Shown piece by piece: positions 4,415 to 42,573 of a DNA stretch of 64,000 bases; position 1 is the stretch's first letter; each line of letters opens with the position of its first letter. The notes beneath the pieces are model-generated. The model was not told the origin of the DNA. It ran no database searches and worked only from the letters and a program-made list of their open reading frames with translations. Origin of the DNA: an uncultured beta proteobacterium (lineage in GTDB: Bacteria; Pseudomonadota; Gammaproteobacteria; Burkholderiales; SG8-39); NCBI GenBank assembly GCA_903928055.1, contig CAIYPG010000046.1:2639-66638 (forward strand). The letters are read 5' to 3'. A program made the position numbers and the translations under genes.

Positions 4415-5173
4415 ATGACCCTGCGCATCCTCATCGTCGATGACGAGCAGCCGGCCCGCAACCGGTTGCGTGAACTGCTCGATGACTGCCGCCTCGAAGT
4501 GCCCCATGAAATCGTCGGTGAAGCGGCCAACGGCATGGAGGCACTGGCGCTGCTGCCCGAGGCGCGGCCGGACGTGGCGCTGGTGGACATCAACATGCCG
4601 GGCATGAGCGGCATTGAGCTCGCCGGCCACCTGCAGGTGCTGGAGCATCCGCCCGCAGTGATCTTCGCCACCGCGCACAACCAGTATGCCGTCGAGGCCT
4701 TTGAAGTGAATGCCATCGACTACCTGCTGAAGCCGGTGCGCGCGGTGCGCCTTGCCGCGGCCTTGAAGAAGATCGGCGGCGCGCGGGCGCCGGCCGGCCT
4801 GTCGCGAGAAACGCTGTCCCGCCTCGATCCGCAGCCGCGGCGTCATTTCGCGATTGCCGAGCGCGGCAAGGTGAAGCTGGTACCGGTCGCGGACGTGCTG
4901 TTCCTCAAGGCCGACCTGAAATACGTATTGGTGCGCACGCACGAAGCCGAGCACCTGATCGAGGAGCCGCTCAGCCGCCTCGAGGAGGAGTTCGGCGGGC
5001 TGTTCATCCGTATCCACCGCAGTTGCCTCGTGGCCCGGCACCTGATCCGTGGTTTTGAGCGCGTGACCGGCGAGGACGGGGAGGGATGGGCAGTGGTGCT
5101 GGAGGGCTGGCCGGAGAAGCTGCCTGTCAGCCGGAGGCAGTGGCCGGGGGTTAAGGCGATAGTTGGGGTTTGA
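4415..5173 (+). CDS. algR: LytTR-family response regulator
   Basis: Receiver domain (ILIVDDE..DVALVDINMPG) plus C-terminal LytTR DNA-binding domain. Paired with the upstream kinase. Confidence 0.85.
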   Translation: MTLRILIVDDEQPARNRLRELLDDCRLEVPHEIVGEAANGMEALALLPEARPDVALVDINMPGMSGIELAGHLQVLEHPPAVIFATAHNQYAVEAFEVNAIDYLLKPVRAVRLAAALKKIGGARAPAGLSRETLSRLDPQPRRHFAIAERGKVKLVPVADVLFLKADLKYVLVRTHEAEHLIEEPLSRLEEEFGGLFIRIHRSCLVARHLIRGFERVTGEDGEGWAVVLEGWPEKLPVSRRQWPGVKAIVGV

Positions 5174-6729: not shown

Positions 6730-7518
6730 ATGAAGGCACCGGCTGCCTCGGACGCCTTGGCCGGCAGGGCCATCCTTGTCACCCGTCCCGTTGCGCGTGC
6801 TGCGCGCCTGGCCGCGCTGGTGCGCGAGGCCGGTGGCGATCCGGTGCTGTTCCCGACGCTTGAAATAGTATCAATTTCAAAAAATAGTGATTCATCCACG
6901 CAAATCGATGACATGAATGTTATTGATGCGGACCTGCTGGTCTTTGTCAGCCCGACGGCCGTGGAGCATGCCGTCGCGGTGTTCGATGCGCTGCTGCCGG
7001 AGTCCGTGAAAGTCGCCGCCGTCGGACATGCCACGGCGCGCGCGTTGCAGGCGCGCGGGGTGGCCAGGGTCATTGCACCCGAAGATGGTGCCGACAGCGA
7101 AGCGCTGGCTGCATTACCGGACATGCAGCAGCTTGCCGGCCGTCGCGTCCTCATCGTGCGCGGCGAGGGCGGTCGCCCCTGGCTGGCCGATACGCTGCGC
7201 GCGCGCGGCGCCACGGTTGAATACCTGGAGTGTTACCGGCGCGTCCGTCCGGACGTCGATGCCGCGCCGCTGGCGGCACGCGTCATTGCGGGTGACATTG
7301 CCGCGGCCACCATCACCTCGCGCGAAGCCCTCGACAACCTGCTGGCCATGCTGCCCGCGGAAGCCCGTGCAGCGGTCCTCGCCACGCCGATGTTCGTCGT
7401 TCATCCGCGCCTTGCCGGGCATGCGCGCGCCCTTGGCGCACGTGAAGTGGTCGTCACCGGCGCGGGCGATGATGCAATGGTTCGGGAATTGCAGGCCTTT
7501 TTTGCTAAAGTAGCGTAA
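6730..7518 (+). CDS. hemD: uroporphyrinogen-III synthase
   Basis: 262 aa, HEM4-like (ILVTRP.., LLVFVSPTAV), sits between hemC and hemX. Contains an anomalous AT-rich patch at 6861-6928. Confidence 0.88.
   Translation: MKAPAASDALAGRAILVTRPVARAARLAALVREAGGDPVLFPTLEIVSISKNSDSSTQIDDMNVIDADLLVFVSPTAVEHAVAVFDALLPESVKVAAVGHATARALQARGVARVIAPEDGADSEALAALPDMQQLAGRRVLIVRGEGGRPWLADTLRARGATVEYLECYRRVRPDVDAAPLAARVIAGDIAAATITSREALDNLLAMLPAEARAAVLATPMFVVHPRLAGHARALGAREVVVTGAGDDAMVRELQAFFAKVA
6861..6928 (-). repeat. AT-rich patch inside hemD, probable degenerate copy (F) of the 63-bp element family
   Basis: The reverse complement shares with copy D the 10-mer TGAAATTGAT and a TGAT box (TGATACTATTT) at one end, and ATCA..TAA..TTCATGT at the other. 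It is 3-4 nt longer. Confidence 0.45.
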
Positions 7519-19707: not shown

Positions 19708-20205
19708 TCAGGGGGTTCCGGTTGCTGCAGCCTTCGTCATGGCCATGACCGGCAGCGCCGTCTTGTCCACCACCTTGCGCAGCACGAAGCTCGAATGCAC
19801 GCCGGTCACCCCTTCGATGCGCGTGATCTTGTCGAGCAGCAGTTCCTGGTAGGCATCCATGTCGCGCACGATCACCTTCAACTGGTAGTCGGCGTCCTGC
19901 CCTGTGACCAGCAGGCACTCCAGCACTTCCGGCAGTTCACCCACCCGGGCCTCGAAGTTCGCAAAGCGCTCCGGCGTATGGCGGTCCATGGAAATGTAGA
20001 TCAGCGCCATCAGCGTCAGCCCGAGTGCGCGCGCCGACACCAGCGTGCGATACCCCGTTACCACGCCAGCCTCCTCCAGCGCCTTCACCCGCCGGAGGCA
20101 GGGTGAGGGCGACAGGCCGATGCGGTCGGCGAGGTCCTGGTTGCTGATGCGGGCATCTTCCTGCAGCACTTCCAGGATGTGCCTGTCGTAGCGGTCAAGT
20201 TGCAC
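19708..20205 (-). CDS. Lrp/AsnC family transcriptional regulator
   Basis: LDRYDRHILEVLQEDARISNQDLADRIGLSPSPCLRRVKALEEAGV HTH plus RAM domain. GTG start at 20205. Confidence 0.9.
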   Translation of the reverse strand: MQLDRYDRHILEVLQEDARISNQDLADRIGLSPSPCLRRVKALEEAGVVTGYRTLVSARALGLTLMALIYISMDRHTPERFANFEARVGELPEVLECLLVTGQDADYQLKVIVRDMDAYQELLLDKITRIEGVTGVHSSFVLRKVVDKTALPVMAMTKAAATGTP

Positions 20206-20232
20206 GATATTGCCAGTAAATAACGATAGAGC

Positions 20233-20287
20233 AATTATTATAGGAAATAATCGTAAATTTAAGCAATATTATTGCGTAAATATATCA
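20233..20287 (-). repeat. shortened (55 bp) degenerate copy (E) of the AT-rich element family
   Basis: The minus strand reads TGATATATTT..TTGCTT..CTATAATAATT. Left box, GCTT core and right box are in family order, but about 8 nt are missing. Confidence 0.4.
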
Positions 20288-20520
20288 GTCGAGGCCATAT
20301 AACGCAATCGCCTGCCGGGCCCCTTGGCCTACACTGGCTGCTCCTGTTACCCACAGGTTGTTTCAGGCCCGGCGCGGGTCAGCCGCTGTCCCACAAGGAC
20401 GGGCGGCACGATCCGAGGCCGGCGCATCCCAAACGGATGCGTGCAGAGTTTGAGTGATCCACGAATCAGCCCATAGCAATGGCAATGACGACCGCAATGA
20501 CGACCGGCAAGGAGCCGCCC

Positions 20521-22200
20521 ATGAAAGCCTTCGACCACAGCAAGTACCGCCCGACCTTAGCTCCGGCATTGGCCAACCGCCAGTGGCCGAGCCGCTCCAT
20601 CACCAAGGCCCCGATCTGGGCCAGTGTGGACCTGCGCGATGGCAATCAGGCGCTGCTCGAACCCATGAACCCGCAACAGAAAAAGCGCATGTGGGCGCTG
20701 CTGGTCAAGCTCGGCGTCAAGGAAATCGAAGTGGGTTTCCCCTCGGCCAGCCAGACGGACTTCGATTTCGTGCGCTGGGCCATCGAGGAAAAGCAGATTC
20801 CCGACGACGTCACGATCCAGGTGCTGGTGCAGGCGCGTCTCGAATTGATCAAGCGCACCTACGAAGCGGTGAAGGGCGCCAGGCGCGTCATCGTGCATGT
20901 CTACAACTCCACCTCGCCGGTGCAGCGCGAGCGCGTGTTCGGCATGGACAAGGCGGGCATCACCGCCATCGCGCGCCAGGGCGCGCAGTGGGTGAAGGAC
21001 GAAGCCGCGAAATATCCGGGCACCGAATGGCAGTTCGAATACTCCCCGGAGAGCTTCACCAGCACCGAGACCGAATACGCCGTGGAGGTCTGCGAGGCGG
21101 TGATGGGCGTATGGCAGCCCACGCCGCAGAACAAATGCATTTTCAACCTGCCCACCACGGTGGAAGTGGCCACGCCGAATGTGTTCGCCGACCAGGTCGA
21201 GTACTTCCACACCCACATCAGCCGTCGCGACTCGGTGGTCCTGTCCGTGCACACGCATAACGACCGCGGCTGCGCCGTCGCCGCCGGTGAACTTGCATTG
21301 CTCGCGGGCGCCGATCGCGTTGAAGGCACACTGCTCGGCAATGGCGAGCGCACCGGCAACATGGACATGACCACCATGGCCATGAACCTCTACAGCCAGG
21401 GCGTTGATCCGAAGCTCGATTTGTCCAATCCGGACGAGATCATCCAGGTGGTCACCGAGTGCACCGACATTCCTTTGCATCCGCGCCATCCGTGGTTTGG
21501 CGAGCTTGTGTACACGGCCTTCTCCGGCAGCCACCAGGACGCGATCCGCAAATGCCTGCAGCAGCAGAAGGCCGGTGAACCCTGGTCAGTGGCCTACTTG
21601 CCGATTGATCCCAAGGACCTGGGTCGTGATTACCAGGCCATCATTCGCGTCAACAGCCAGTCCGGAAAGGGCGGCGTGGCGTTCGTGCTGGAGCGCGACT
21701 TCGGCCTTGCCCTGCCGCGCTGGCTGCAGATCGAACTGGCGCAGGTGGTGCAGAAGGCCAGCGAGGTTCGCGGCGGCGAAATGGACCCGGCCACGATCCA
21801 CAACCTTTTCAGGGAACAGTTCATCGCCGATCGCGACCCGGTGTCGCTCACTGGCTACCAGCTCGATCGCAGCGCCGGCCATGATGCGATCAAGGTGCAT
21901 GTCGTCGATCGCGGCGTGAAGGTGACCATGCACGGCGAAGGTGAGGGCGCGCTGTCGGCCTTTGTCGATGGACTGATGAAGCACGGCAAGAGCAAGATCG
22001 CCGTCGTCGATTACAGCGAGCACGCCATCGGCACCGGCACCAACGCCGAAGCCGTGGCCTATGTGCAGATCAACATCGATGGCCAGCGCGTCTCCGGCGT
22101 CGCGCTCGACCACGACACGGTCAGCGCGTCGATGAAGGCGGTGCTGTCGGCATGGAACCGCATGCAGGCCGAAGTCGCGCAGCGCCAGAAGGTCGCTTAA
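20521..22200 (+). CDS. leuA: 2-isopropylmalate synthase (long, actinobacterial-type LeuA)
   Basis: ATG at 20521 preceded by AAGGAG. WASVDLRDGNQAL, EVGFPSASQTDFDFVR, and a C-terminal LeuA dimerisation/regulatory domain. Confidence 0.9.
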   Translation: MKAFDHSKYRPTLAPALANRQWPSRSITKAPIWASVDLRDGNQALLEPMNPQQKKRMWALLVKLGVKEIEVGFPSASQTDFDFVRWAIEEKQIPDDVTIQVLVQARLELIKRTYEAVKGARRVIVHVYNSTSPVQRERVFGMDKAGITAIARQGAQWVKDEAAKYPGTEWQFEYSPESFTSTETEYAVEVCEAVMGVWQPTPQNKCIFNLPTTVEVATPNVFADQVEYFHTHISRRDSVVLSVHTHNDRGCAVAAGELALLAGADRVEGTLLGNGERTGNMDMTTMAMNLYSQGVDPKLDLSNPDEIIQVVTECTDIPLHPRHPWFGELVYTAFSGSHQDAIRKCLQQQKAGEPWSVAYLPIDPKDLGRDYQAIIRVNSQSGKGGVAFVLERDFGLALPRWLQIELAQVVQKASEVRGGEMDPATIHNLFREQFIADRDPVSLTGYQLDRSAGHDAIKVHVVDRGVKVTMHGEGEGALSAFVDGLMKHGKSKIAVVDYSEHAIGTGTNAEAVAYVQINIDGQRVSGVALDHDTVSASMKAVLSAWNRMQAEVAQRQKVA

Positions 22201-22424: not shown

Positions 22425-23363
22425 ATGACCTGGCTCTGGATCCCCATCACGCTCATCGCTGCAGTCCTCCAGACTGCGCGCAATGCCGCCCAGCGCGGCC
22501 TCATCAAGACTGCCGGCACACTCGGCGCCACACTGGTGCGCTTCCTCTACGGACTGCCGTTTGCCGTGGTGTGGCTGGCGATCCTGCATTACCAGCATCC
22601 GCCGGTTGTGAATGCCGATGCGCCAGACGTGTCCGCAGCCTTCCTGATGTGGGTGTCCATGGGCGGCGTGTCGCAGATCATCGCCACGGCTTTCCTGCTG
22701 CTTGCCATGCAGACCCGCTCCTTTGCCGTCGCCACCGCCTATGCCAAGACCGAGGTGCTGCAGGTGGCGCTGTTCAGCTTCGTGCTGCTCGGCGAGGCGG
22801 TGAGCACTGGTGGCATGGTGGCCATATTGCTTTCGGTGGTGGGCGTGATGCTGCTGTCGGTGAAGCCGGACGCGCAGATGGGCGATGGGGGTGCAGGCAA
22901 GCGCTGGTGGTCCGAATGGCTGTCCCCTGCCGCCTTCTACGGCATCGTGGCCGGCGGCCTGTTCGGCCTCTCGGCGGTGGGCTACCGCGGCGCGGCCCTT
23001 CAGCATCCCGACTGGACGCCGTTCTACTCCGGGGCATTCAACCTGGTGTGGGCACAGGCGATACAGACCGTGTTGCTCGGCGGATGGCTGCTGGTGAAGA
23101 ACCGCCAGGCGCTGATGATGGTGATGCGCGAATGGAAGCTGTCGCTGGCTGCGGGCTTCCTCGGCGCCACCGCCTCCGCGGGCTGGTTCACCTCGTTCGC
23201 CATGCACAACGCCGCCGAAGTGCGCGCGCTCAGCCTCGTCGAAGTGCTGTTCGGCTTCTTCATCTCGCACCAGTGGTACAAGGAGAAAACCGAGAAGCGT
23301 GAGCTGCTGGGGATGGCGCTGCTGTTGCTGGGGCTGGCGGTGCTGGTGACTTCGGTCAGTTGA
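22425..23363 (+). CDS. DMT/EamA-like permease
   Basis: 312 aa, about ten TM helices, duplicated EamA-like halves. Confidence 0.7.
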   Translation: MTWLWIPITLIAAVLQTARNAAQRGLIKTAGTLGATLVRFLYGLPFAVVWLAILHYQHPPVVNADAPDVSAAFLMWVSMGGVSQIIATAFLLLAMQTRSFAVATAYAKTEVLQVALFSFVLLGEAVSTGGMVAILLSVVGVMLLSVKPDAQMGDGGAGKRWWSEWLSPAAFYGIVAGGLFGLSAVGYRGAALQHPDWTPFYSGAFNLVWAQAIQTVLLGGWLLVKNRQALMMVMREWKLSLAAGFLGATASAGWFTSFAMHNAAEVRALSLVEVLFGFFISHQWYKEKTEKRELLGMALLLLGLAVLVTSVS

Positions 23364-23376
23364 CCTCATCTTTTAA

Positions 23377-23439
23377 TGATCATAATTGTCTTGTAAAGTT
23401 GCTTTAATAATTAATAAATCTGTAAAATTGATTATAATG
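23377..23439 (+). repeat. AT-rich 63-bp element, copy A
   Basis: TGATCATAATTGTCTTGTAAAGTTGCTTTAATAATTAATAAATCTGTAAAATTGATTATAATG. Ungapped identity is 44/63 to copy D and 41/63 to copy B. It ends 2 nt before the methyltransferase ATG. Confidence 0.8.
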
Positions 23440-23441
23440 AT

Positions 23442-24296
23442 ATGACCGAATCACCGATCCGGAATGTTTCCGACACTGCCTTCTGGATTGCGCACCATCG
23501 CGCAGAAGAAAGCGACCGGCCCGATGCCCTGTTCCATGACCCGCTTGCCCGGCGGCTGGCGGGTGAGCGCGGGCAGGTGATCGGGAGGGATTTGCCGGCG
23601 CAGCGCTTCGTTGCCTGGAACGTATCGGTCCGCACCTGCATCATCGACGATTTCATCCGCGAATCGATTGCGCACGGGGTGGACACGGTGCTCAACCTCG
23701 GCGCCGGCCTCGATGCGCGGCCCTGGCGGATGGAACTGCCGCCGACGCTCCGCTGGGTGGAAGTGGACCATCCGCACCTCATGGCCTACAAGGCCGAGCA
23801 ACTCGCCGGGAAGAAGGCGCACTGCCAAGTGGAGCGCATCAGCCTGGACCTTGCTGATCGCGAGGCACGCCGCAGCATGCTGGCCGGCGTGAATGCGCGC
23901 GCCGGAAAGATGCTGCTGATCACCGAGGGCGTGCTGCCCTATCTCAGCGTGGAGGAAGCCGCCGCACTGGCCGACGACCTCCGAACCCTTGATCGAGCCA
24001 GCGGCTGGATCGTGGACTACATCTCGGCACTGGCGATGGAATACCGCGAACGCGGCGGCATGGCGAACCGCATGCAGAACGCGCCATTCAAATTCAAGCC
24101 GCAGGACTGGTTCGAATTCTTCCGCGGCCATGGATGGCAATGCAACGAGATGCGCTACATGCCCGTGGAAGGCGAACGCCTCGGACGGCCCTTCCCGATT
24201 CCCGTGCCGATGAAGTTGATGATGCGCCTGGCTTCGCCGGAGAAAAAGAAGGCGCTTCGGGAGTTGATGGGGTACGCGTTGATGGGGCCGTGCTGA
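23442..24296 (+). CDS. class I SAM-dependent methyltransferase (LCM / TIGR00027-like)
   Basis: SDTAFWIAHHRAEE.., LNLGAGLDARPWR SAM-binding motif, 284 aa. Confidence 0.8.
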   Translation: MTESPIRNVSDTAFWIAHHRAEESDRPDALFHDPLARRLAGERGQVIGRDLPAQRFVAWNVSVRTCIIDDFIRESIAHGVDTVLNLGAGLDARPWRMELPPTLRWVEVDHPHLMAYKAEQLAGKKAHCQVERISLDLADREARRSMLAGVNARAGKMLLITEGVLPYLSVEEAAALADDLRTLDRASGWIVDYISALAMEYRERGGMANRMQNAPFKFKPQDWFEFFRGHGWQCNEMRYMPVEGERLGRPFPIPVPMKLMMRLASPEKKKALRELMGYALMGPC

Positions 24297-24313
24297 TCTA
24301 AGTAACGAGCTGG

Positions 24314-25489
24314 CTACCAGGCATTCTCAAGAACCTGTTCCAGTTCGCCCGCATTCTGTACCCGCCGCGGATTGTCGCGAACGAACCAGTCTTCCATCGA
24401 GATGGCGGCCAGATGCGGAAGGGATTCGCGTGTGACACCGATGTCCCGCAGGCGCCCCGGTGTGCCGAGCGACTCAAAAATTGATCGCATGGCCTCGACC
24501 ACGACATCGACAGGCGCCCTTTGGTCGGCATTCATTCCGAAGGCATTCACCAGCTTCTGGAGTCCTTCTGCCGCTGCCACCTCGTTGAACCGAACCACAT
24601 GCGGCAGCACGATGGCATTGGCCAGGCCGTTGTCGACATGAAACCGGGCGCTGATGGCATGTCCCAGCGGAAGGGCAATTCCCGCGCCGGTGTAGTCCGT
24701 GCCGTGGCCGCAGAGCAGCGATGCGAACATGAGGTCGGCGCGGATTGCCGGATCGTCGCCATCCCCTTCCACCAGGCGCTGCCGCAGCAGCCGCGCGGCA
24801 TGCATCAGCAGCGCATCGGAAAACGGATCGCCCGAGCGTGACATGAGCCCTTCCATCGCCATGGCCAGCGTATTGAGACCGGCGCTGACAACCAGCTTCC
24901 TTGGCGGTGTTGCGAGCAGTTCCGGATGGATGAACACCGCCTGCGCGCGGGTCTTGGGATCGAATAGCGCGAGGCGCCTGCCATCAACGGGGTCGAGCAC
25001 TGCGCTCCCCGCCTTCAGCGTGGCGGTCGTCGGTGTCGTGGGAATCACGAACTGCGGGAGCTTCGGTGCCAGCAACTTGGGGCTTCTGAGCCTGCCACTC
25101 TCGTCGCGCGATGTGCAGAGCTGCCGTGCGCCACCCTTTTCCGCGAGCAGGATGCCCGCCGCACGGGCCGTCACAATCGCCGATCCCCCGCCCAGGGCGA
25201 TGATGCAATCCGCGTTGAGGCGCTGCAGTTCGGCCGCTGCCGCCTCCACGGCGGGCAGCGGACTGTGCGCCTTGACGCCGGCATGCACGCCTGCGCACCT
25301 GTCGCCCGCTGCGACGCGAACACGGTCGGCCATGCCGTCCCGCGCCAGCGACGAACCGCAGAAGAGCACGGCACGATGGCTGTCGATGCGTTCGAGTTCC
25401 CTGCCCAGCATCGCCAGGCTGTCAGGCCCGTGGAAGAGGCGTAGCGCAGGCACGATGTGCCGGAAAGATTCGATGCTGCCGATGCTCAC
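24314..25489 (-). CDS. iron-containing alcohol dehydrogenase family protein
   Basis: 391 aa, GGGSAIVTARA glycine motif and conserved His-rich C-terminal half. Confidence 0.85.
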   Translation of the reverse strand: MSIGSIESFRHIVPALRLFHGPDSLAMLGRELERIDSHRAVLFCGSSLARDGMADRVRVAAGDRCAGVHAGVKAHSPLPAVEAAAAELQRLNADCIIALGGGSAIVTARAAGILLAEKGGARQLCTSRDESGRLRSPKLLAPKLPQFVIPTTPTTATLKAGSAVLDPVDGRRLALFDPKTRAQAVFIHPELLATPPRKLVVSAGLNTLAMAMEGLMSRSGDPFSDALLMHAARLLRQRLVEGDGDDPAIRADLMFASLLCGHGTDYTGAGIALPLGHAISARFHVDNGLANAIVLPHVVRFNEVAAAEGLQKLVNAFGMNADQRAPVDVVVEAMRSIFESLGTPGRLRDIGVTRESLPHLAAISMEDWFVRDNPRRVQNAGELEQVLENAW

Positions 25490-25553: not shown

Positions 25554-25934
25554 TCAGTCCCCGAATTGCGCCGCCAGGTCTTCGTAATTTTCCTGGCGGA
25601 ATCGTGGCGTGCAAATCGCCAGAAACACCAGCTTCCCCTCACCAACATTGGCAATCCGCTGTCGGCACATCGCCGGGATCAGCACCACATCCCCGGCTTT
25701 GACTTCGTGCGGCGCAAGGTCGCCAATCTCGACGCGGCCGCGTCCTTCCAGGATCACATAGCGCTCACCGGTGCCCTTGAGGCGGTGCCAGCGCGTGGTG
25801 ACGCCCGGCGCGACGCTGGCGCGGGCGATGGAGCAGTCCGGGTCGTCCGGGGTGTTGGAGAGTTCGAGGATGTCGCAGCGCTCTTCGGTGGCGAAGGTCT
25901 GCGCAGGGTCGGGGGCAAGGATGGCGGGGTTCAT
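25554..25934 (-). CDS. cupin domain protein
   Basis: ATG at 25934 avoids overlap with the MFS gene. Cupin motifs WHRLKGTGERYVILEG and GDVVLIP. Confidence 0.75.
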   Translation of the reverse strand: MNPAILAPDPAQTFATEERCDILELSNTPDDPDCSIARASVAPGVTTRWHRLKGTGERYVILEGRGRVEIGDLAPHEVKAGDVVLIPAMCRQRIANVGEGKLVFLAICTPRFRQENYEDLAAQFGD

Positions 25935-29913: not shown

Positions 29914-30098
29914 GCCGTCATGATAACGGATTGGGTATCCCTTACCGCTGAATGACCCTTCCGCACAGAGGGTGTCATCGAAAGACTTCGGGCTCCGCCG
30001 GGGCGGGCCCTGCACAGACAGCTTGGCGACAGTGATTGCCGCGCTCAGGCGGGGATAATGGCGAACCGGAATCTTTCGGCGTTTGAATTATCAATCGC

Positions 30099-31427
30099 AT
30101 GCAGACCGGCAACGGCATGCAACAGCAGGCTCAACGCATGAATCAGGAATCCCCTCCACACGCCAAAACGCACGCCACGGACCATGTGCCGCTGCTGAAG
30201 AAGCTCGGCCCCGGACTGATCACGGGCGCCGCGGACGATGATCCCAGTGGCATTGCGACGTATTCGCAGGCCGGTGCGCAGTTCGGCTACGGGCTGCTGT
30301 GGTCGACGCTGCTCACTACACCGCTGATGATCGGCATCCAGATTGTCAGCGCGCGCCTCGGTCGGGTTTCGGGGCACGGCCTCGCGGCCAACATCCGCGC
30401 GCAGTTTCCGCGACCGCTGCTGTATTTCATCGTTTCATTGTTGCTGATCGCGAACACGATCAATATTGCCGCGGATCTGGGCGCCATGGGCGATGCGCTG
30501 GCGCTGATCGTCGGTGGCCGCAGCGCAATCTACATCGTGTTCTTTGCGCTGGTGTCGCTGACGCTCCAGGTCTTCATTCCGTTCCCGCGCTATGCACCGC
30601 TCCTGAAGTGGCTGACGCTGGCGTTGTTCGCCTATGTAGGTACGGTGCTGGTGGTGCATGTGCCGCTCGAGGAGATGTTGAGCGGTGCGCTGCTGCCGAA
30701 CCTGTCCTTCCAGAGCAGCAATGTGGGCATGCTGGTGGCGGTGTTCGGCACCACCATCAGCCCGTATCTGTTCTTCTGGCAGGCATCGCAGGAGGTCGAG
30801 GAACAGCGTGCCACCCCCGGGGATGAACCGCTGCGCGAGGCTCCGGAACAGGCGCGCATTCATTTGCAGCGCATCAAGGTCGACACCTACATCGGGATGA
30901 TCTTTTCCAACCTGATCGCCTTCTGCATCATGCTGACCACGGCTGTGACGCTGCATGGCGCGGGGGTCGTCAATATCGACAGCGCGGCAGAGGCGGCGAC
31001 GGCATTGCGGCCGCTTGCGGGGGATTTCGCCTTCCTGCTGTTTGCCGCGGGGATCGTCGGTACCGGCCTGCTGGCGGTTCCCGTGCTGGCCGGTTCGGCG
31101 GCCTACGCCGTGGCCGAGAGCTTCAGCTGGCGCATCGGCCTGGGGTTGCCGTTGACCGAGGCGCGCGGCTTTTATTCGATTCTCACCATTGCCACGCTGC
31201 TTGGCGTGGTGATCGACCTGACCGGCGTTGATTCCATCAAGATGCTGCTGTGGGCCGCGATGATCAACGGCGTGGTGTCGGTGCCCATCATGGCGGTGAT
31301 GATGCTGCTCTCCGCCCGGCCAGAGGTGATGGGCCGCTTCGTGGTGAGCGGGCGGCTGCGTTTCCTGGGGTGGCTGGCCACGGGTGTCATGGCTGCCGCG
31401 GTCGTGGCGATGTTTGTGGTGTCCTGA
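30099..31427 (+). CDS. NRAMP-family divalent metal transporter
   Basis: GPGLITGAADDDPSGIATYSQAG motif, 11-12 TM helices, 442 aa. Confidence 0.85.
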   Translation: MQTGNGMQQQAQRMNQESPPHAKTHATDHVPLLKKLGPGLITGAADDDPSGIATYSQAGAQFGYGLLWSTLLTTPLMIGIQIVSARLGRVSGHGLAANIRAQFPRPLLYFIVSLLLIANTINIAADLGAMGDALALIVGGRSAIYIVFFALVSLTLQVFIPFPRYAPLLKWLTLALFAYVGTVLVVHVPLEEMLSGALLPNLSFQSSNVGMLVAVFGTTISPYLFFWQASQEVEEQRATPGDEPLREAPEQARIHLQRIKVDTYIGMIFSNLIAFCIMLTTAVTLHGAGVVNIDSAAEAATALRPLAGDFAFLLFAAGIVGTGLLAVPVLAGSAAYAVAESFSWRIGLGLPLTEARGFYSILTIATLLGVVIDLTGVDSIKMLLWAAMINGVVSVPIMAVMMLLSARPEVMGRFVVSGRLRFLGWLATGVMAAAVVAMFVVS

Positions 31428-31476
31428 CGCCGCTGAAGCAGAGCGGTTTCCCCATGCCGGATATTCCGGACTGTGT

Positions 31477-31539
31477 TGATTTTAATTATTCGGTGAACAC
31501 GCTTCTGAAAACAGATGATTATTGTTTTTGATAATAATT
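31477..31539 (+). repeat. AT-rich 63-bp element, copy C
   Basis: TGATTTTAATTATTC-37 nt-TGATAATAATT. Same 15/37/11 architecture as A and B, and the right module is identical to B. Lies at the convergent NRAMP/cgs junction. Confidence 0.7.
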
Positions 31540-31556
31540 ACGGAAACTCCTGACGC

Positions 31557-34500
31557 TCAGGCGACCTTGCTTGGGGCAACCGGCAAGGTCCTGCCCACCG
31601 TCACTTCGACCGCATGTTCCTGGCGGTCATCAACCAGCGCAATCACCGGTTCGGACTGATCGACGCCGTCGACTGACACGTGCATCGCGCTGTCTGCTGT
31701 CGTTATCGAACCGGAGGGTTGCTGCCGCACCGTGATGTGCCAGTTGGTCTCGCGATGGCGGTAGTGCAGCACATACCCCTCCCATACTTCGGGCGGGCAA
31801 GGGGCGAGGCGCAGCGTGTCGCCTTCCAGCCGCAGGCCGAGCAGCGACTCCACGATCAGCCGGTACATCCAGCCGGCCGACCCCGTGTACCAGGTCCAGC
31901 CGCCGCGGCCGGTGTGCGGTGCAACGGCATAGACATCGGCGGCAACGACATAGGGTTCCACCTTGTAGCGCTCGATGTCCGGGGCCGTCATTGCATGATT
32001 CAGCGGATTGATCATGGTGGCCAGTTCCCAGGCGCGCCGGCTGTCGCCCTGGGCGGCAAAGGCCATCGCCGCCCAGATCGCAGCATGGGTATATTGCCCG
32101 CCGTTCTCGCGCACGCCCGGCACATAGCCCTTGATGTAGCCCGGATTCATCGCCGACTTGTCGAAAGGCGGATCGAGCAACTGCACCAGCGCGTGCTCGC
32201 GGCGCACCAGGCGCCGGTCCAGTGAATCCATGGCCTGCCGTGAGCGCTTCGGGTCGCCTGCCCCGGACAGCACCGACCAGCTTTGCGCGATCGAGTCGAT
32301 CTGGCATTCATCATTGCCCGCCGAACCCAGCGGCGTGCCGTCGTCGAACCAGGCGCGGCGATACCACTCGCCGTCCCAGCCGTGCTGTTCGAGGTTGCGG
32401 CGCAACTGGTCGGCTTCCGCCAGGCAGCGCGCGGTGAAGGTCGCGTCGCCGTGATTGCGGGCCAGGCCGCTGAAGCGCGTCAGCACCTCGTACAGAAAGA
32501 ACCCAAGCCAGACACTTTCGCCGCGGCCCTGGTTGCCGACCATGTTCATGCCGTCATTCCAGTCGCCGCCGCCCATGAGCGGCAGGCCGTGCGCGCCGAA
32601 GCGCAGGCCCTTCAGCACGGCGCGCACGCAGTGCTCGTAGAGGCTGGCGGTTTCCTCGGAGCGTACGGGCAGGTCGTAATAGGAGTCCTCCTCGGGATTG
32701 AGCGGCCGGCCCTCGAGGAACGGCACGACCTCGTCGAGGATGGCGCGATCGCCGGTGGTGAGCACGTAACGGCTCACCGACAGCGGCAGCCACAGATAAT
32801 CGTCGCTGCAGTGGGTGCGCACGCCGCGGCCCGAGGGCGGATGCCACCAGTGCTGCACGTCGCCTTCGCGGAACTGGCGCGAGGCGCTGCGCAGCAGGTG
32901 TTCACGCACGAGGCCGGGCTCGACATGCATCAGCGCCATCACATCCTGCAACTGGTCACGAAAGCCGTAGGCGCCGCCTGACTGGTAGTAGCCGCTGCGC
33001 GCCCACAGCCGGCAGGCCAGGGTCTGGTACACCAGCCAGCCGTTGGTCAGCACATTGACGGCGCGGTCCGGTGTTTCCACCTGCAGCGCGCCCAGCGTGT
33101 GCTGCCAGTACTGGCGCACCGCCTCCAGTGCCTGGTGCGCGGCGGCGGGCCCGCGGAAGCGGCGCACGAGCTTGTTGGCGTCCTGTGCGCCGCGCCGGCC
33201 GGCAACGCCCAGCCGGAAGATGATTTCACGTTCCTCGCCGATGGCAAGCTCGACCGGAACCTGGATCGCGGCGCAGGGATCAAGGCCCGCTCCCAGCTTG
33301 TTGGAAAGCTGCGCGCGGGTCATGGCGGCCGGACGGCGCAGCGTGCCGTTGCGCCCGATGAACTCGGTGCGGTCGCCGGTCACGGTGCGCGTGGTGTCGT
33401 CGGCATCGAAGAAGGCGATCTGGTCGACGTACTCGCTGTTGTAGGCGTTGTGCGCGAACAGCGCGCCGCTGGAGGGATCGAGTTCGGTGATCACATGCGG
33501 AACCGTTTTCGGCCGCAGGTCGCCCAGCACCCATTCCACATAGCCGGTGGCGGAGATCTGGCGTGCCCGGTTGGATTCGTTGCGCACCTTCAGTACCGAG
33601 AACTTGATTGATGCATCCAGCGCAACGTACATGCACAGTTCGGAATGGATGCCGTCTTCGCTGTGTTCGAACACGCTGTAGCCGAAGCCGTGGCGGGTGA
33701 CGTAGGGTCCGTTGCCGCGCGCCGGGAGCGGGGTGGGGGACCAGAAATGCCCGCTTTCCTCGTCGCGCAGGTAGAAGGCTTCGCCGCTGGAATCACAGAC
33801 CAGGTCGTTGCTCCATGGCGTGAGGCGGAATTCGTGTGCGTTCTCCGCCCAGGTGTAGACCGCGCCGCTCTCCGAAACCACGCTGCCGAAATGCGGATTG
33901 GCCAGCACATTGGCCCAGGGCGCCGGCGTGAGTTTCCCGCGCACCGTGGTGATGACGTACTCGCGCCCGTCGGCACTGAAGCCGCCCACGCCGTTGTCGA
34001 AGATCAGCGCGCCGTCCTGCACCTTCGCTGCTGCAGGGGTTGCCGGCAGGAGGGGCACCGCAGCCTGCATGGTTTCGGCGCGCCGCGTGCGGGTCGGGAT
34101 GAAGCGCGGCAGGTTCAGGTGCGGGGCGCGCATCGCGCCGCGGCTGCGCCGGCTGATCTGCTCTTCGAGTGTGCCGCGCTGGTCGGTGATGATGGCGCGC
34201 GCCACGGATTTGATCAGGATGCGGTCCTCGTCGGAGATCTGTTCGGCGCGGCGCACGAAGATGCCGCCGGGCCGGTCCATGACATGGGCTTCGACGCCCG
34301 CGGCGATCAGGCCGATGATCTGGTCCTGCAGCACCTGCCGGTAGCCGGCCGTGTCCTCGTTCCAGATCACCAGTTCCACCGCCAGGCCCTTCAGGCGCCA
34401 GTAGGCATGGGCCTGCACGAGCTGGCGCACCAGGTCGATGTTCTCCAGGTCGGAGATCTGCAGCAGCACGATGGGCAGGTCGCCGGAGATGGCATAGCCC

Positions 34501-37500
34501 CACAGGCTGGATTGCCCGCGGCGGTTGCTGGCGAGGACGACCGGGTCGGCACGCAGCGCCGGGCTGGTGTAGAGCACCGAGCCGGCGAGGCGCCCGTACA
34601 ACTGCGCGTCGGACTCGGTGGCGTTGATCTGGCGCAGGATCACCCAGCTGTGGGTCCAGGCCAGGTCGAAGACGCGATCGGCCAGGTGGCGGTCGTGGTA
34701 CTTGTCGATCAGTGCGAGCGCGGCATCGCGCGTTTCACCCACGCCGGTCACCATGTCGACGATCACCGACTGTTCCGGTTCGAGCGTGATCTGGTGGCGG
34801 ATTGCGACGATGGGATCGAGCACCGAGCCGGCGCTGCCCGACAGTGCTGCCGGTTCGCGCAGGGCGCGCGGTGCGGCGAGCGTGCCGCCACGGCCGATGA
34901 AGCGCAGCCGGTCGGTCTCATAGGACACCGCCGTGCTGTCGGCCTCGTGCACCGCCATGAGGTGGAACATCGAGGGTGTCTGCTCGTCCACCGAACGCGG
35001 CCGGCGCGTGCACAGGATGGCCTGGCGGTGCGGGATGATCTCGGTCTGCACGAAAAGATTGCTGAAGGCCGGATGCAGCGCATCGGCGGTCGCCGAGGCG
35101 AGCACGACTTCGGCATAGCTCGTCACGTCGATGGTGCGGCGCGAGCGCGAGCGGTTCGTGATGTGCAGGCGGCGCAGCTCGATGTCGTCTTCGGGCGAGA
35201 CCACGATTTCGGTGTGGGTGTCGAAGTTGTGGTCGCGGCGGCGGAACTCCACGCGCGCCTCGGAGAACATCGCTTCATAGGCCGGCGTGGGCGCGAGCGT
35301 CGGCTGGTGCGCGCTTGACCAGAATTCGCCGCTCGCCAGGTCGCGGATGAAGCAGAAGGTGCCCCAGCTGTCGCAGGTGCTGTCCTCGCGCCAGCGCGTC
35401 ACGGCGATGTCCTTCCAGCGGCTGTAGCCGCCGCCGGCGTTGGTCACCATGACGTGATAGCGCCCGTTGGACAGCAGTTGCACCTCGGGTGCCGGCGTGT
35501 CGGGGCTGGAGAGCATGCGCACCGGCATCTCCGGACCGCTCGATACGGCGGGAATGCCCGACAGTTCCGCACCGCGCAGATGGAAGGCGGCGACCTTCGG
35601 GATGCGCTCCTGCAGCAGCAGCAGCGTGGCGCGGAACATGGTGTCCGCCTCGAAGCGCCGCTGCATGCTGCGATTGCGCAGCACATGCGCCAGCGACAAC
35701 AGCGTCATGCCCTGATGGTGCGCCATGTAGGAGCGGACCACCGTGCCGGCCGCGCTGGTCCCGGTGGTGCCTGTTGTACCGGCACCCGTGGCGCGGCGCT
35801 GCCGCGAGGGCGTGTAGTCGATGGCTTCATGCAGGCCGTAGCGGCCCTCGAGGCCTTCGTCGGCCAGTCGCTGCAGGTTGAGGCAGGCCGCCTCGGGCAT
35901 CACCAGCAGCGCCAGCGCCGATGCATAGGGGGCCACGACCAGGTCCTCGGCCAGCCCGCGCTTCAGGCCCAGCCCCGGCACGCCAAAGGCGCGGTACTGG
36001 TAGTTGAGCTGCACATCGACCAGGTGATAGCCCGATTCGGAAATGCCCCAGGGCACGGCGCGCTGCCGGCCGTAGTCGATCTGTCGCGCCACCGCAGAGC
36101 GGCAGGTCTGTTCGAGCAGCGTGTCCTCGTAGGCCGGCATCACCAGCAGCGGCATCAGGTACTCGAACATCGAGCCGCTCCACGACAGCAGGACGGGGTC
36201 GCCCCCGGAACTGGTCAGCAGGCGGCCGAGCGCGAACCAGCTTTCCTGCGGGAGCTGCCCCTGGGCGATGGCCACGAAGCAGGAGAAGCGCGCCTCCGAT
36301 GCCAGCAGGTCGTAGAAACTGGCGTCGCGCCGGCGGTCATCGACGTTGTAGCCGATGGCCAGCAGGTGGCGCGCATGGTCGTACAGGAAGTCGTATTCCA
36401 TGCGGGACAGATCGGCAGCCTGTTGCGCCAGCGCATCGATGGCCGCGATGCGTTCACGGGCGCGCTCGCCGGCCAGGGTGACTGAATCGCGCAGTGCGGC
36501 GAGCCAGGCGCGCTCTTCAGTGCGGGCATGGGTGAGCGCATCTGCAGTTGCGCCGGCGGCGGGGTTTGCATCGGGCAGGTTCAGCCGCTTGTCGATGGCG
36601 GGCAGCAATTGCGCATCGAGTACGGCCATATGACGCAGCGTCGGAATCGATATGCGGCCCGGCAGCGAGGCGATGCGTGCCGGCGCAGCGGGCAGCGCAA
36701 GCCATGGCGCAAGCCACAGCAGTTCGTCGGCGAAGCTGCGGCACTGGCGGTCCAGTGCATGGGCCCACCAGCGCGCATCGTCGTCCGCGGGTATGGCATC
36801 GACGGCATCGATGCCGAGCGCAACCGTCCTGGCCGTGGCGGCCAGACGGGTCATCCAGTGCCAGGCGGCGGCAATTGTGGCGGGACGTGAATCAAAGGCG
36901 GAGTCGAGGTCGCGGCGCATCTGGCCGAGCATCTCGTCCAGGGGTGCGGGCGTGGGATGCGTCCCGGCAGCGGCGATGAGCACATCCAGCGTGTCGCACA
37001 GGCCCTCGAATACGTGCGTCGAGAAAATGCGCTCGTCGGGCTGCGCCAGCAGGCCCTGGCGCAGGGTGAGCAGGTGGCCGGCAAGGTTGCCGCTGTCCAC
37101 CGACGAGATGTAGCGCGGCTGCAGCGGCTGCAGTGACTGCGTGTCATACCAGTTGAAGAAATGCCCCTGGTGCCGCTCCAGGCCCGCCATTGTCTGCAGC
37201 GTGTTCGCGGTGCGCTCGGCCAGCAGGCCGGCAGGCAGGTAGCGAAAGTCATACGCTGCCAGGTTCGCGAGCAGCGCAAGGCCCATGTTGGTCGGCGAGG
37301 TTCGATGTGCCAGTACCGCGTCGCGATATTCCTGGAAGTTGTCCGGGGGCAGCCAGTGGTCATCGGGGCCGACGAAGGCCTCGAAGAACGCCCAGGTCCG
37401 GCGCGCGAGTTTGCGCAGGAACACGCGCTGTTCCCCGGTCAGGCGCGCGGCGCGCCGCGGCAGGGGCCGGCTGACCCACCAGGCGATGGCTGGTGATCCA

Positions 37501-40500
37501 AACCACAGGCCCAGCAGCGGAGCGGCGATGACCAGCACCGCAGGGCGCGTCGCTGCCAGCCATGCCGCGGTCGAGACGGCAATGGCCGGCGCAATCCACA
37601 TGGTTCCCCAGGCCGATGCAAAGTCGGTGCGATCCGAGCCGGTGGTCCGGGCCGGTTCGCCCGAGGGCTGCCATTCGAGCAGTCGATGGTGCGTGAACAG
37701 CACGCGCGCGTGGGTGCGCAGGATCGCATCGAGGCTGAACCAGGCTTCGTAGGGCAGGCAGGCCAGGGCAAATGCCGACTGTGCAAATTGTCCGGCGGCG
37801 GCACGCAGGCTGCCTTTGGCATGCTGCCGGAAGTCCATGTCATCGGGCCTGCGTGCCAGGTCGAGTGCGGCCGCGGCCAGCGTTGGCGTGAGCAACAGGC
37901 CGAGCACGGCGAACGTCCAGAACACCGGCGATGCCAGCACGGTCCAGCCGATGAGCAGCAGCAGCGTGATTGCCGCCGGCACCAGGCTGCGGCGCAGGTT
38001 GTCGAACAGCTTCCACTGGGACAGGGCGGAGAGCGCATTGTGTTCGTGCCGCTTGCCTTTGGCGGGAATGCGCGACAGCAGCCACTGCGCGATCTGCCAG
38101 TCGCCGCGGATCCAGCGATGGCGGCGGCTGACATCGGCCTGGTAGCGCGCGGGGTGTTCCTCGTAGAGTTGCACGTCGCTCAGCAGGCCGGAGCGCGCGT
38201 AGCAGCCTTCCAGCAGGTCGTGGCTGAGGATGCGGTTCTCGGGGAAGCGGCCCTTGAGCGCGAACTCGAATGCGTCGATGTCGTAGATGCCCTTGCCGAT
38301 GAAGGAGCCTTCGGCAAACAGGTCCTGGTAGACGTCGGATACGGCGCGGGTGTAGGGATCAATGCCCGATTCGCTGCCGTACAGCCGCGCATAGCGCGAG
38401 CGTCCGGCGGCCGGCAGGCTCACCGCCATGCGCGGCTGCAGGATGCCGTAGCCCTCGCTGATGCGGCGCTCGGCCTTGTCCTGGCGCGGACGGTTCAGCG
38501 GATGCGCCATCGCGCCGACGAACTGGCGTGCCGAATCGCGCGGCAACTGCGTGTCGGTGTCCAGCGTGATCACGTACTTCATGCCCGCGAGGTTCTCGAT
38601 GGCGCCGACGATCAGCGCAAAGCGCGTTGCCGGAGCGCCGCGCAGCAGCGCATTGAGGTCGGCCAGTTTGCCGCGCTTGCGCTCATAGCCCATCCACAGT
38701 CGCTCCTGCGGATTCCAGGTGCGCGGGCGATGCAGCAGGAAGAACCGGTCGCCTTTTCCGGCGTTGCCCGCATACTTGGTGTTCAGGTCTTCGACCAGCC
38801 GGCGTGCGAGCTGCAGTGGTGCCGCGTCGCCAGGCAGACTCTCTGCGCCTGCATCGTTCCAGTCGGTGAGCAGCGCGAACAGCAGGTTGTCATCCTGGTT
38901 GGCAAGGAAGCGGATCTCCAGTGCCTCGACCAGCGCCTCGACACCGGCTTCGTCCGGCAGCATGGTCGGCACCACGACCAGCGTGCGGAATTCAGCCGGT
39001 ATGCCTGCGCTGAAATCCAGCCGCGGCAGCGCATGGGGCGTTGCCAGCAGGGTTGCAACCCAGTTCACCAGTGCCACGGCGAGATGGCTTGCGCCGAGGG
39101 CGAGCAGCAGGGCTGCAAGTGTCAGCACCGCCTCGCCGGCCCCATCGGCCCAGGCCCGGCTCCACAGGCCCGTGGCGAGTGCGGCCGTGAGCAGCGCGAT
39201 GGCGCCCAGGTACAGCGACAGCGGAACACGCGCCGCGGCGCGGCGCAGCGTCGTGGTTGTGGCGTAACGCGTCTGCGCAGCGTGCTCGAGTTCGGGCAGC
39301 CCCTTGCCGATCAGGTAATGGCCGACGTGCGCCGCGCGCTGGTCGTCACTACCGCCTTCATTGCCGTCGTGAAGGGCTGCCGCCCTGTGCGCCAGTTGCA
39401 CGGCCTTGCGGGCCACATCGGATTCGGACAATTGTCCGGCCTTCGCGATGCGTTCCACCACGTGCCGGTAGTTGTCGCGCGTGGCGAAGTCCATGCGGCC
39501 GTAGACCCCGCCGGGGTCTTCGCGCAGCTTCTGCTCGACCACGCTCATGGCTTCGACGAATTCGCGCCAGTCCACAGCGCCGAGAAGGCGCAGGCTGCCG
39601 ATGCTGTTGCTGACGTAGACCTGGTCAGCGGCCTGCTTCTGCGCCTCGGACTGCACCAGTTGTTCGATGGTCTGGCTGGACTCCGAGAGCCGCTGTTCTA
39701 TCCAGGTGAGGGGCAGCGCAAGTGCCGGGCTCTGGCCCTGCAGGCGGCGCGCGAATTCGGAGACGAAGGACGAACTCATCGGCGGGCTTGAGCGCGCCAT
39801 GTCCGCGATCATGAGGATGAGGCTCTTGGGATCCTTTGTGGCGACTTCGATCATGCGGTCGGCCCATGCGCCGGCCTGGTCGCGGTCGCTGGTGCCTGAA
39901 GAAATGCGTGCGGCAACGCGGCGCAGGTTCTCGATCAACGCAAGCCGCAGCATGATGGGAATGGCCCACAGTTCGCCGAGGGCGAGCAGGGTCACCTTCT
40001 GGTAGGCGGCGACAAAGCGGCTGAGCCGTTCGAGGTCGATGCGCCCGTCGCCATGCGACACCGATTCGAGCGCAATGTCGTAGACGCGCGGCCGTCCGGC
40101 CGAGGGGCCGTAGGCCAGTCGCGGCAGCTCGCGGCTGTAGCGCCGGGGCAGGTGGCGCTTGGCGGTGCGGATCTGCTCCTCGATCAGATAGAAGTTGTCG
40201 AGCAGCCATTCACCGGCGGGGGAGATGCGGCGGTTGGCGGTGACCGCGCCGGTCAGCAGGTTGCAGACCGTAACCAGCATGGCTTCATTGTCGGCCAGCC
40301 TTGCCAGGAGGCGGTCCGGCGCCGGTGTGAGGGTGAGCCGGTGCGCGCCGGCCAGGATGCGGCCGTGCTGTTCCATCTGGTCGGTGCTCAGCAATTCCGC
40401 GCGCAGCGGCGGCTCGTCTTCGACGGAGGCTGGCACTGGCGCAGGGCGCAGCCATTTTGACCAGCGGGCCGGCGACCACCAGTTCGTGGCGGGCTTGCGA

Positions 40501-41595: not shown

Positions 41596-42573
41596 TCATT
41601 CCGGAACGATGCCTGCATCCTTGATCACCTTCGCGGAGCGCGCGACTTCCGCGGCGAGAAAACTGGTGAACTGCTCAGGGCTGGCGCTGGCCTGCAGTTC
41701 GATGCCCTGTTCGGCAAAAAATTTGCGCGCTTCGGGGTTGTTCGTGTACCTGGCGATTTCCGCATGCAGGCGCGCCAGCACATCCTTTGGCACGCCCGCC
41801 GGCGCGACCACGCCGTTGAAGATGCTCGCCTCGAAGCCGGGCAGTGTTTCGGCGATGGCCGGGATGTCCGGCAGCAGTGAAAAGCGCTGCGGGCTGCTGA
41901 CGCCCAGCGCCCTTACCTTGCCGCCCTTGACCAGCGGGATGGCCGTGCTGAAATTGTCGAACTTTACGCTGACATGCCCGCCGGCCAGGTCGGCCAGTGC
42001 CTGCGCATCACCGTTGTAGCCGATGCGCACAATGGCGACGCCCGCAGCGTGCTTGAACAGTTCCATGCCGATGTGCGAGCCCGAGCCCAGGCTGGAGGAG
42101 CCGTAGTCGAGCTTGCCCGGATTGGCCTTGGCGTAGCTGATGAGTTCCTTGACGTTGCGTGCCGCCAGGCTCGGGGTGACCAGCAGCATCTGTGGAATCC
42201 AGGCGGCGAGGCTCACGCCGGTGAAGTCGCGCAGCGTGTCGTAGGGCAGGCTCTTTGTCATGTAGGGCGCGTAGGTGAAGCTGGGCGAGATCATGAGCAG
42301 GGTATAGCCGTCGGCCGGTGATTTGGCCACATGGTCGATGCCGATGACGGAATTGGCGCCCGGGCGATTCTCCACCAGCACGCGTTTTCCCAGCCCGTCG
42401 CTGATGCCGTTGGCCACCGCCCGCGCGATGATGTCCAGGTTCCCGCCCGGCACCACGCTGACAACGATGCGTGGCTGCTTTGTGGGATAACTTTGGGCTG
42501 CAGCCTGACTCGCTGTGCCGAAGATGGCTGCGGTCACGATGGCAGCCCTGATCAACGGTGATGATGTATTCAT
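41596..42573 (-). CDS. Bug-family (TctC-like) substrate-binding protein
   Basis: Signal peptide followed by YPTKQPRIVVSVVPGGNLD, 325 aa. Confidence 0.9.
   Translation of the reverse strand: MNTSSPLIRAAIVTAAIFGTASQAAAQSYPTKQPRIVVSVVPGGNLDIIARAVANGISDGLGKRVLVENRPGANSVIGIDHVAKSPADGYTLLMISPSFTYAPYMTKSLPYDTLRDFTGVSLAAWIPQMLLVTPSLAARNVKELISYAKANPGKLDYGSSSLGSGSHIGMELFKHAAGVAIVRIGYNGDAQALADLAGGHVSVKFDNFSTAIPLVKGGKVRALGVSSPQRFSLLPDIPAIAETLPGFEASIFNGVVAPAGVPKDVLARLHAEIARYTNNPEARKFFAEQGIELQASASPEQFTSFLAAEVARSAKVIKDAGIVPE

Follow-up and report, generated by a model that had tools for sequence, protein, structure and literature searches.

The 64,000-nucleotide stretch of contig CAIYPG010000046.1 analysed here (the window) comes from an uncultured betaproteobacterium and carries a family of AT-rich segments, each about 63 bp long, in which two TGAT boxes are set as direct repeats 52 bp apart. 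The orientation of the segments is independent of the neighbouring genes, the hallmarks of transposons are absent, and at the two members compared across species length and AT-richness have been conserved in place as the sequence itself turned over. Our preferred explanation, held tentatively, is that these segments are fixed-geometry two-box DNA platforms for a putative regulator or nucleoid protein, kept in place by selection. From the sequences we infer that such a protein would bind the boxes, bridge the two of them and exert a regulatory or architectural effect. The family is unrecognised, as a preliminary description of this DNA had stated, and a search of the whole window against Rfam at the gathering score gave no match.

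AT-rich islands and the two-box family

The window as a whole has a GC content of 64.1%. Scanning it with a 60-nt sliding window and a threshold of <35% GC called exactly six AT-rich islands (6855-6932, 20192-20313, 23347-23473, 31468-31555, 42751-42856 and 61392-61499). All six had been picked out in the preliminary description, whose G+C values counted by hand (23371-23441, 12/71; 42768-42840, 15/73) were reproduced. The family members are lettered A, B, C, D and F, and the island at 20.2 kb is lettered E:

A, 23377-23439, plus strand: in a 78-nt gap that separates the genes for an EamA transporter (22425-23363, plus) and an LCM-family methyltransferase (23442-24296, plus); boxes TGATCATAAT (left, 23377-23386) and TGATTATAAT (right, 23429-23438)
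B, 42776-42838, plus strand: in the 384-nt gap between hemF (42958-43944, minus) and tctC (41596-42573, minus), antisense to both; boxes TGATCATAAT (left, 42776-42785) and TGATAATAAT (right, 42828-42837)
C, 31477-31539, plus strand: between the convergent Nramp gene mntH (30099-31427, plus) and a cyclic beta-1,2-glucan synthase-like gene (31557-40559, minus, 3000 aa); left box TGATTTTAAT, right box TGATAATAAT at 31529-31538
D, 61415-61477, minus strand: the stop codon of glyS (TGA, the element's first 3 nt), the complete 42-nt spacer between glyS and gmhB, and codons 1-6 of gmhB; boxes TGATCATAAT (left, 61468-61477) and TGATCATTTT (right, 61416-61425)
F, 6863-6925 in its best register, minus strand: inside hemD (6730-7518, plus), codons ~45-65, antisense; right box TGATACTATT, good; left box CAATAACATT, degenerate, at the same 52-bp offset
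E, 20192-20313: minimum 20% GC, between an Lrp/AsnC gene (19708-20205, minus) and a leuA-like 2-isopropylmalate synthase gene (20479-22200, plus)

The four members A-D form an ungapped alignment of 63 nt. Their identities are those reported earlier (A-D 44, A-B 41, B-C 38 and A-C 34 positions), and the remaining pairs, B-D and C-D, have 36 and 32, giving a range of 51-70% among copies. Each pair was compared with 400 dinucleotide-preserving shuffles of the islands, taking the best register and allowing both strands. Four pairs stood far above such composition-matched sequence (z of 8.6 for A-D, 7.2 for A-B, 5.7 for B-C and 5.1 for B-D), with 0/400 shuffles as high, and two were weaker (A-C, z=3.0, 5/400; C-D, z=2.3). 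The shared words that had been described are also there: ATGATCATAAT is shared by A, B and D and TGATAATAATT by B and C, one copy in each, with neither word found anywhere else in the window, and GCTT occupies positions 25-28 in A, B and C alike. The likeness of A, B and D extends across the entire 63 nt and is not restricted to the boxes.

The geometry of two direct TGAT boxes 52 bp apart is real in A, B, C and D. Within the window, the pattern TGATnAT-N45-TGATnAT with 0-1 mismatch is found only in these four members, and up to two mismatches it is found 14 times against 1.45 expected. All exact TGATNATWWT boxes in the window (7/7) fall within islands A-D, against 0.33 expected. One of the two-mismatch matches lies over the start of mntH (30087-30145, minus strand), with a perfect TTGATAAT directly upstream of the ATG, TGATTCA 52 bp away within the gene and GC-rich DNA between the boxes; since two such non-island matches compare with 1.45 expected, it is probably a coincidence. 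This match and member C stand at opposite ends of mntH.

As a further comparison, a profile was built solely from the glyS-gmhB spacers of other genomes, which are orthologs of D, and searched against the window. It ranked D (E=1e-12), B (0.03), A (0.044), C (5.7), then the right box of B, and F (58), every match being in the correct strand and register; the top distinct sites were D, B, A, C and F. Member C, fourth in this ranking, is the most diverged of A-D and matches the two-box pattern with 1 mismatch.

No single relation to genes unites the members. A and D are sense to their local genes and C is sense to mntH, B and F are antisense, and none of A, B, C, D and F lies between divergent genes. 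A ends 2 nt before the methyltransferase ATG, B lies 120 nt downstream of hemF and 200 nt upstream of tctC, and the gmhB ATG is at positions 46-48 of element D.

The preliminary description had proposed two degenerate copies as well, of which one survives. The copy placed at 20233-20287 lies in island E, the divergent promoter region of the Lrp/AsnC regulator gene and the leuA-like gene, and was rejected as a member: E has a z of 1.6 against C and ~0 against the other three of A-D, and was never matched by any profile. The hemD copy, F, is weak by whole sequence (shuffle z ~3.3) and is a probable degenerate member, supported by its ortholog rather than by its own sequence. Another AT-rich patch of the same species, milder at 35% GC (locus L118, 12457-12521), lies ~2.5 kb past the window's left end inside the coding sequence of prmC, encoding a HemK-family methyltransferase, and holds no TGAT boxes.

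Orthologs of D and F in related genomes

Ortholog comparison across species covers D and F; A and C were compared with a conspecific contig only (L020), which at 98.9% identity is uninformative for their orthologs. This contig has patches of 7-17 differences per 150 nt (window 24084-24383 and 25584-25883), including the 3' end of the methyltransferase gene, and the gmhB region of L011, a contig from the same sample, is much more diverged, a pattern that suggests recombination mosaicism or co-existing lineages.

For D, homologs of GmhB were taken at graded identity: 96% (L011 and L012), 89% (L013 to L015), 85% (L016 and L017) and 80% (L018 and L019). The glyS-gmhB spacer is the sole AT-rich island in each 20-kb locus. 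Through the 96, 89 and 85% lineages it is exactly 42 nt long, free of indels and 24-29% GC, at an identity to the window's spacer of 0.67, 0.62 and 0.55. The third codon positions of gmhB are less diverged in the same lineages (0.84, 0.75 and 0.60), and GC at those positions is ~0.8 in genomes whose spacer stays at 0.24-0.29 GC. Both TGATCA cores are invariant in the D orthologs of these three lineages, the boxes themselves are largely retained (TGATCAYAA on the left, ATGAAAnTGATCAT on the right), and the 52-bp spacing is kept. In the 80% lineage the spacer is 33 nt long and 76% GC; TGATC after the stop codon and ATGAAACTGATCATT, encoding Met-Lys-Leu-Ile-Ile, remain. The constant 42-nt spacers, together with a GC-rich version that differs by 9 nt, indicate that D is not a 63-bp insertion. 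On this comparison D is a spacer in its original place, with AT-richness and length maintained by selection.

The ortholog of F was found on contigs L022 and L023, which carry a HemF 76% identical to the window's and also hemD. Their sole AT-rich island lies at the same hemD codons as F, and on the antisense strand it reads TGATTATATT-N42-TGATAATATT, which is TGATnAT twice, exactly 52 bp apart. Shuffles of this island give such a pair at p=2.5e-5. We regard the hemD ortholog as an independent confirmation of the two-box architecture, as its sequence played no part in the definition of the family. The HEM4 domain spans HemD residues 26-242, and the variable stretch that contains F is 3 residues longer in the relative, with an element-sized insert in neither genome. 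The encoded residues differ (LSINREVHFEIDLNNGNIIN versus VSISKNSDSSTQIDDMNVID) and GC falls to 0.20-0.23 in both genomes over the same codons, which argues that coding constraint is overridden at this point in hemD.

Downstream of hemF, where B lies in the window, no island was found in two relatives, whose neighbouring genes there differ. In one relative (L021, HemF 81% identical) the region downstream of hemF (1243-1627) holds at least 2.5 GC-rich repeat units of ~175 bp, each with the palindromic motif CCCCCTTTGACAAGGGGG. This repeat family is absent from the window and looks like a repetitive extragenic palindromic (REP)-like or tandem intergenic repeat family.

Interpretation and alternatives

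Three roles were offered in the preliminary description: a miniature insertion element, a two-box operator for a regulator or nucleoid protein, and a leader or small RNA. The operator fits best, given the 52-bp layout of the hemD ortholog and the length and AT content kept at D, and the other two were not supported. Under our proposal each segment of ~63 bp and ~20% GC, with two direct TGATnAT(A/T)(A/T)T boxes 52 bp apart, would be contacted at both boxes at once by a sequence-specific putative protein, as a dimer of dimers or an oligomer. Because 52 bp corresponds to five helical turns, both boxes would lie on the same face of the helix, and the AT-rich DNA between them, easily bent and melted, would be wrapped or looped. 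The candidate protein could be a metalloregulator-like or nucleoid-associated factor, TGATnAT resembling a metalloregulator half-site, and the likeness of the boxes to known protein sites counts in favour of this reading. Transcription or topology would in this way be controlled locally, at junctions within operons and at the ends of genes. The DNA between the boxes may be partly curved: AA/A-tracts are phased at 10.2-10.6 bp in A (10.2 bp, p=0.006) and D (p=0.024) but not significantly in the other members, with p=0.002 for the pooled in-phase minus out-of-phase statistic. The orientation and position of the members fit a DNA-level role better than an RNA-level one.

Several observations weigh against this proposal. 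The sample behind the family is five loci in ~80 kb of one species. At D, the right box also codes for Lys-Leu-Ile-Ile and the left box includes the glyS stop codon; boxes that are coding or stop sequence, and that persist beside a shorter GC-rich spacer, have a second explanation. The likeness of A, B and D over their whole 63 nt is explained as well by common descent. A-tract phasing is not significant in B, C, the D ortholog of L016, the F ortholog of L022 or E. With a matrix made from 22 published Fur sites the best score here is 9.5 bits, where true sites reach 17.7 or more, and the E. coli H-NS motif is not enriched in the islands (best 7-8/10 per island, shuffle p 0.22-0.92). Nearly all of the 22 H-NS motif matches of at least 8/10 in the window lie outside the islands.

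If a bridging protein does use these segments, a GC-rich bacterium would be employing rare, strongly AT-rich patches of 63 bp as addresses at which genes are controlled or the chromosome is organised, including places where regulators are seldom looked for, such as the inside of operons, the space between convergent genes and coding sequence. Length and base composition conserved without sequence are a clear signature of selection on DNA shape, and one that can be searched for in other GC-rich genomes. A bolder form of the proposal, to which we give distinctly little credence, is a private class of chromosomal landmark sites: two-box modules bound by a putative DNA-bridging protein, kept at gene junctions and in coding sequence at the cost of rare codons, and copied without a transposase (D to A). 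Were that true, the modules would represent an architectural or regulatory element of a novel type and not an ordinary operator. Should they prove to be no more than spacers that are unstructured or weakly operator-like, the finding is an ordinary one.

A credible partial alternative, although we consider it unlikely, is paralogous spread of an intercistronic or translation-start cassette. A D-like stop-to-start junction would have been copied before other genes, notably the methyltransferase gene of A, as an AT-rich unstructured spacer without a Shine-Dalgarno sequence joined to AT-rich first codons, and would keep the start region of the mRNA unstructured or serve as an internal promoter. 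A and D do end at or overlap the start codons of unrelated genes, both lack a Shine-Dalgarno sequence, and the first gmhB codons use AT-rich synonyms. A is 41-43/63 identical to the D orthologs of L011, L013 and L014 (24-26/42 outside the boxes), about as close as the window's own D at 43-49/63, and is not similar to the deeper D ortholog of L016 (32/63). Two histories fit: A arose by paralogous copying of a D-like junction later than the split from L016, or A and D are both held near a common optimum. The profile built from D orthologs matches A and B, and the methyltransferase gene is accessory, the next homolog after the conspecific one being 68% identical, which fits capture of an existing junction. 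Such a relationship between A and D would exemplify a regulatory junction reused before an unrelated, probably acquired gene. That A, and perhaps B, may be paralogous copies is a question of origin, separate from that of function.

The cassette nevertheless explains A and D only, as no gene in matching orientation follows B, C or F, and it leaves the 52-bp spacing in the hemD of another genome unexplained. Most boxes hold a -10-like hexamer such as CATAAT or TATAAT when their sequence is read, and A, alone among the islands, has a sigma-70-like match (TTAATA-16-TATAAT, 10/12). The TATAAT of A ends 3 nt before the ATG, however, too close for a normal transcription start, and promoter scans of B, C and D gave no promoter-like match. 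The 70% identity of A and D also falls short of the mobile-promoter criterion of 80% over 50 nt, and their homology has no clear extension into the flanks.

An RNA-level role is decidedly improbable in our view. The islands would in this case be AU-rich unstructured entry sites for RNase E or S1/Hfq, processing signals, or a small RNA or leader, the last two having been suggested in the preliminary description. All members do lie in probably transcribed regions (operon junctions, 3' ends and coding sequence), D separates glyS and gmhB within one operon, and AT-rich first codons and the rare-codon cluster in hemD would act on RNA or translation too. In B and F, however, the strand-specific similarity is antisense to local transcription, a mixed orientation that gives an RNA role no support. 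RNA fold z-scores on either strand were ordinary (+0.72 to -2.17) with no stable stem-loop or hairpin, an alignment fold of seven D sequences contained zero compensatory pairs, and terminator scans found no terminator-like site inside any island. Rfam searched at E up to 1 gave no match for B and one chance match to a small nucleolar RNA for A. A generic AU-rich segment would leave the fixed 52-bp spacing unexplained.

Canonical operators for Fur (or Zur or Mur), marking an iron or manganese regulon, are very improbable. Among the Fur boxes listed in PMC3055841 are some that contain the exact words TGATAATAATT and TGATTATAAT. A-D match the 7-1-7 Fur consensus at 11-12/14 positions (per-island shuffle p <0.003 to 0.043), nominally above shuffles, which E and F are not, and reach at best 13-14/19 of the 19-bp consensus. 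Three of the five islands touch hemD, hemF or mntH, but at p ~0.07 by a binomial estimate, and the genes flanking D and A have no metal link. No island site comes within 3 mismatches of the 19-bp consensus, only one 7-mer arm (TGATAAT) is matched, and the best matrix score is below the minimum for real sites. None of the positions is the promoter of a metal gene: C and B lie downstream of mntH and hemF, respectively, and F is antisense within the hemD coding sequence. When consensus sequences for Fur, PerR, Zur, FNR and TyrR were compared, only the Fur forms were nominally enriched, and the Fur matrix test failed. The IHF consensus, checked by eye on all boxes, had no match, and sigma-54, PhoB/PhoP-type direct repeats, dif/Xer, the DnaA box, attC and Ter, also judged by eye, were inconsistent across members.

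The remaining candidate is a miniature non-autonomous mobile element, of the miniature inverted-repeat transposable element (MITE) or REP type, that inserts into palindromes. In its favour are the fixed length, the similarity among dispersed copies and their placement between co-directional or convergent genes, never divergent ones, as is usual for REP elements. Flanking inverted repeats also drew attention. The perfect 8-nt repeat said to bracket A is present, but its left arm is broken (TTCAGTCA) in the conspecific contig, and both arms lie within flanking coding sequences. B is bracketed, as had been described, by the perfect 9-nt repeat TTCCCGGAA (42759-42767) and TTCCGGGAA (42839-42847); each arm is near-palindromic, and as a result the two also match as a direct repeat at 8/9 positions. 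Around random 63-nt segments of the window, perfect flanking inverted repeats of at least 8 nt occur in 1.5% of cases and of at least 9 nt in 0.34%. The brackets are statistically odd, and we regard that of B as unexplained. C has a TTCCGG/CGGAA pair around it, related to the arms of B.

Searches for further copies and for traces of insertion gave little. Terminal inverted repeats reached 9-10/14 per element at best (shuffle p 0.12-0.58), none beyond chance; target duplications were absent, the longest direct words common to the flanks being 4-6 nt and not at element boundaries. Two pattern scans, both of which fit A, B and D and may be overfitted, and both run on collections that evidently do not include the source species, returned only unrelated matches among those examined. 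In 185,579 species genomes the strict pattern ATGATCATAATNNTNNTNTAAAN{27,35}TGATNAT had two, in a Parasphingopyxis metagenome-assembled genome (MAG) and an Exilispira MAG, and among metagenome contigs TGATCAYAATNNNNNNKTRAANNTGCTT had 94, of which the 25 with highest GC were examined and all found unrelated, about half of them being one recurrent sequence of a gut organism. The Parasphingopyxis match (L009, 666-800) is a junction between GC-rich DNA and AT-rich DNA at least 170 nt long, and has the look of a border of inserted DNA, foreign or AT-rich, and not of a member of the family. A scan of 173 kb of relatives' DNA with the family profile found copies only at orthologous sites.

Evidence against insertion comes also from D and F, which sit at orthologous sites in relatives without an insertion-sized change in length, D with its constant spacer and 9-nt difference and F at the same codons with no insert; presence and absence by element length was seen at neither locus. 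The preliminary description had held that the same spacers at orthologous loci in relatives would refute its proposal. Spacers of this kind are found for D and F, and they count against mobility, not against function. With identities of only 51-70% and no stable hairpin in addition, a mobile element is scarcely credible, and the family, as far as sequence comparison goes, is real but not a mobile element.

Host setting and comparison with known systems

The window is occupied by core housekeeping genes of a Burkholderiales-type betaproteobacterium. They include hemCDXY, argH, the leuA-like gene, mntH and two tctC genes, along with the sets dusB-fis-purH-purD-hemF, lptD-surA-pdxA-rsmA and glyS-gmhB-plsC. 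Products identical to those of window genes were found only on metagenome contigs, from freshwater-type ENA projects, and the nearest named relatives in the GmhB homolog search are "Burkholderiales bacterium" MAGs. Adjoining argH is a gene for a fusion of a Ser/Thr protein kinase with a cyclic-nucleotide-binding domain (472-1749, minus), and downstream of it lies a LytS-like histidine kinase and LytTR response regulator pair (3363-5173). Between purH and purD there is a 91-aa open reading frame (45274-45549, minus), separated by a 313-nt gap from 45863, whose only similarity is to the C-terminal part (positions 60-143 of 144) of PagP, a lipid A palmitoyltransferase; in two relatives purD comes straight after purH. 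Truncation, a frameshift or a miscalled start may account for this reading frame.

Among known repeat systems, REP elements and bacterial interspersed mosaic elements, Correia elements and MITEs, and Rickettsia palindromic elements are likewise short, dispersed, extragenic or intragenic in frame, and found in co-directional or convergent gene positions. Unlike them, the islands have no palindrome, hairpin, terminal repeats or target duplication. They are also of low copy number and low identity, and they are conserved in place at orthologous sites without presence/absence polymorphism. Putative mobile promoters, as Nijveen et al. (2012, PMC3575422) define them, are 80% or more identical over 50 nt or more in front of unrelated genes. 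The islands resemble them in that similar non-coding DNA stands before unrelated genes (A and D) with no associated transposase, but A and D share only 44/63 positions (70%), B, C and F are not upstream, and D is anciently fixed at its locus.

Fur operators (7-1-7 TGATAAT-N-ATTATCA) share with the islands the TGATAAT arm, the AT-rich setting and some heme and manganese neighbours. The islands differ in carrying the half-site only, as direct repeats 52 bp apart and not as one palindrome over a promoter, and in lying inside operons, at 3' ends and in coding sequence. H-NS favours curved DNA and clustered sites, and its high-affinity motif is tCGATAAATT (PMC2094087). Like H-NS nucleation sites, the islands are extremely AT-rich relative to the genome, have a central T-A step in their boxes, show phased A-tracts in A and D and occur within operons. 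They depart from those sites in being isolated, 63 bp long and of fixed geometry where H-NS occupies extended AT-rich tracts, in lacking enrichment of the motif, and in the absence of phasing from B, C and F.

A further comparison is with regulators that bridge two operators. Oligomeric regulators, LysR-type tetramers for example, bridge two operators that are integral helical turns apart, and their sites are usually dyads at about -65 to -10 of the regulated promoter. The boxes here are direct repeats and most members lie outside promoter position, which sets them apart from such sites. In geometry the two agree: a conserved spacing of an integral number of turns, as in a bipartite operator, here 52 bp, is found in A-D, in the D orthologs of three lineages and in the hemD ortholog. 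Like the sites of bridging regulators, the islands offer two same-face sites about five turns apart with bendable DNA between them, the spacing conserved and the intervening sequence free to change.

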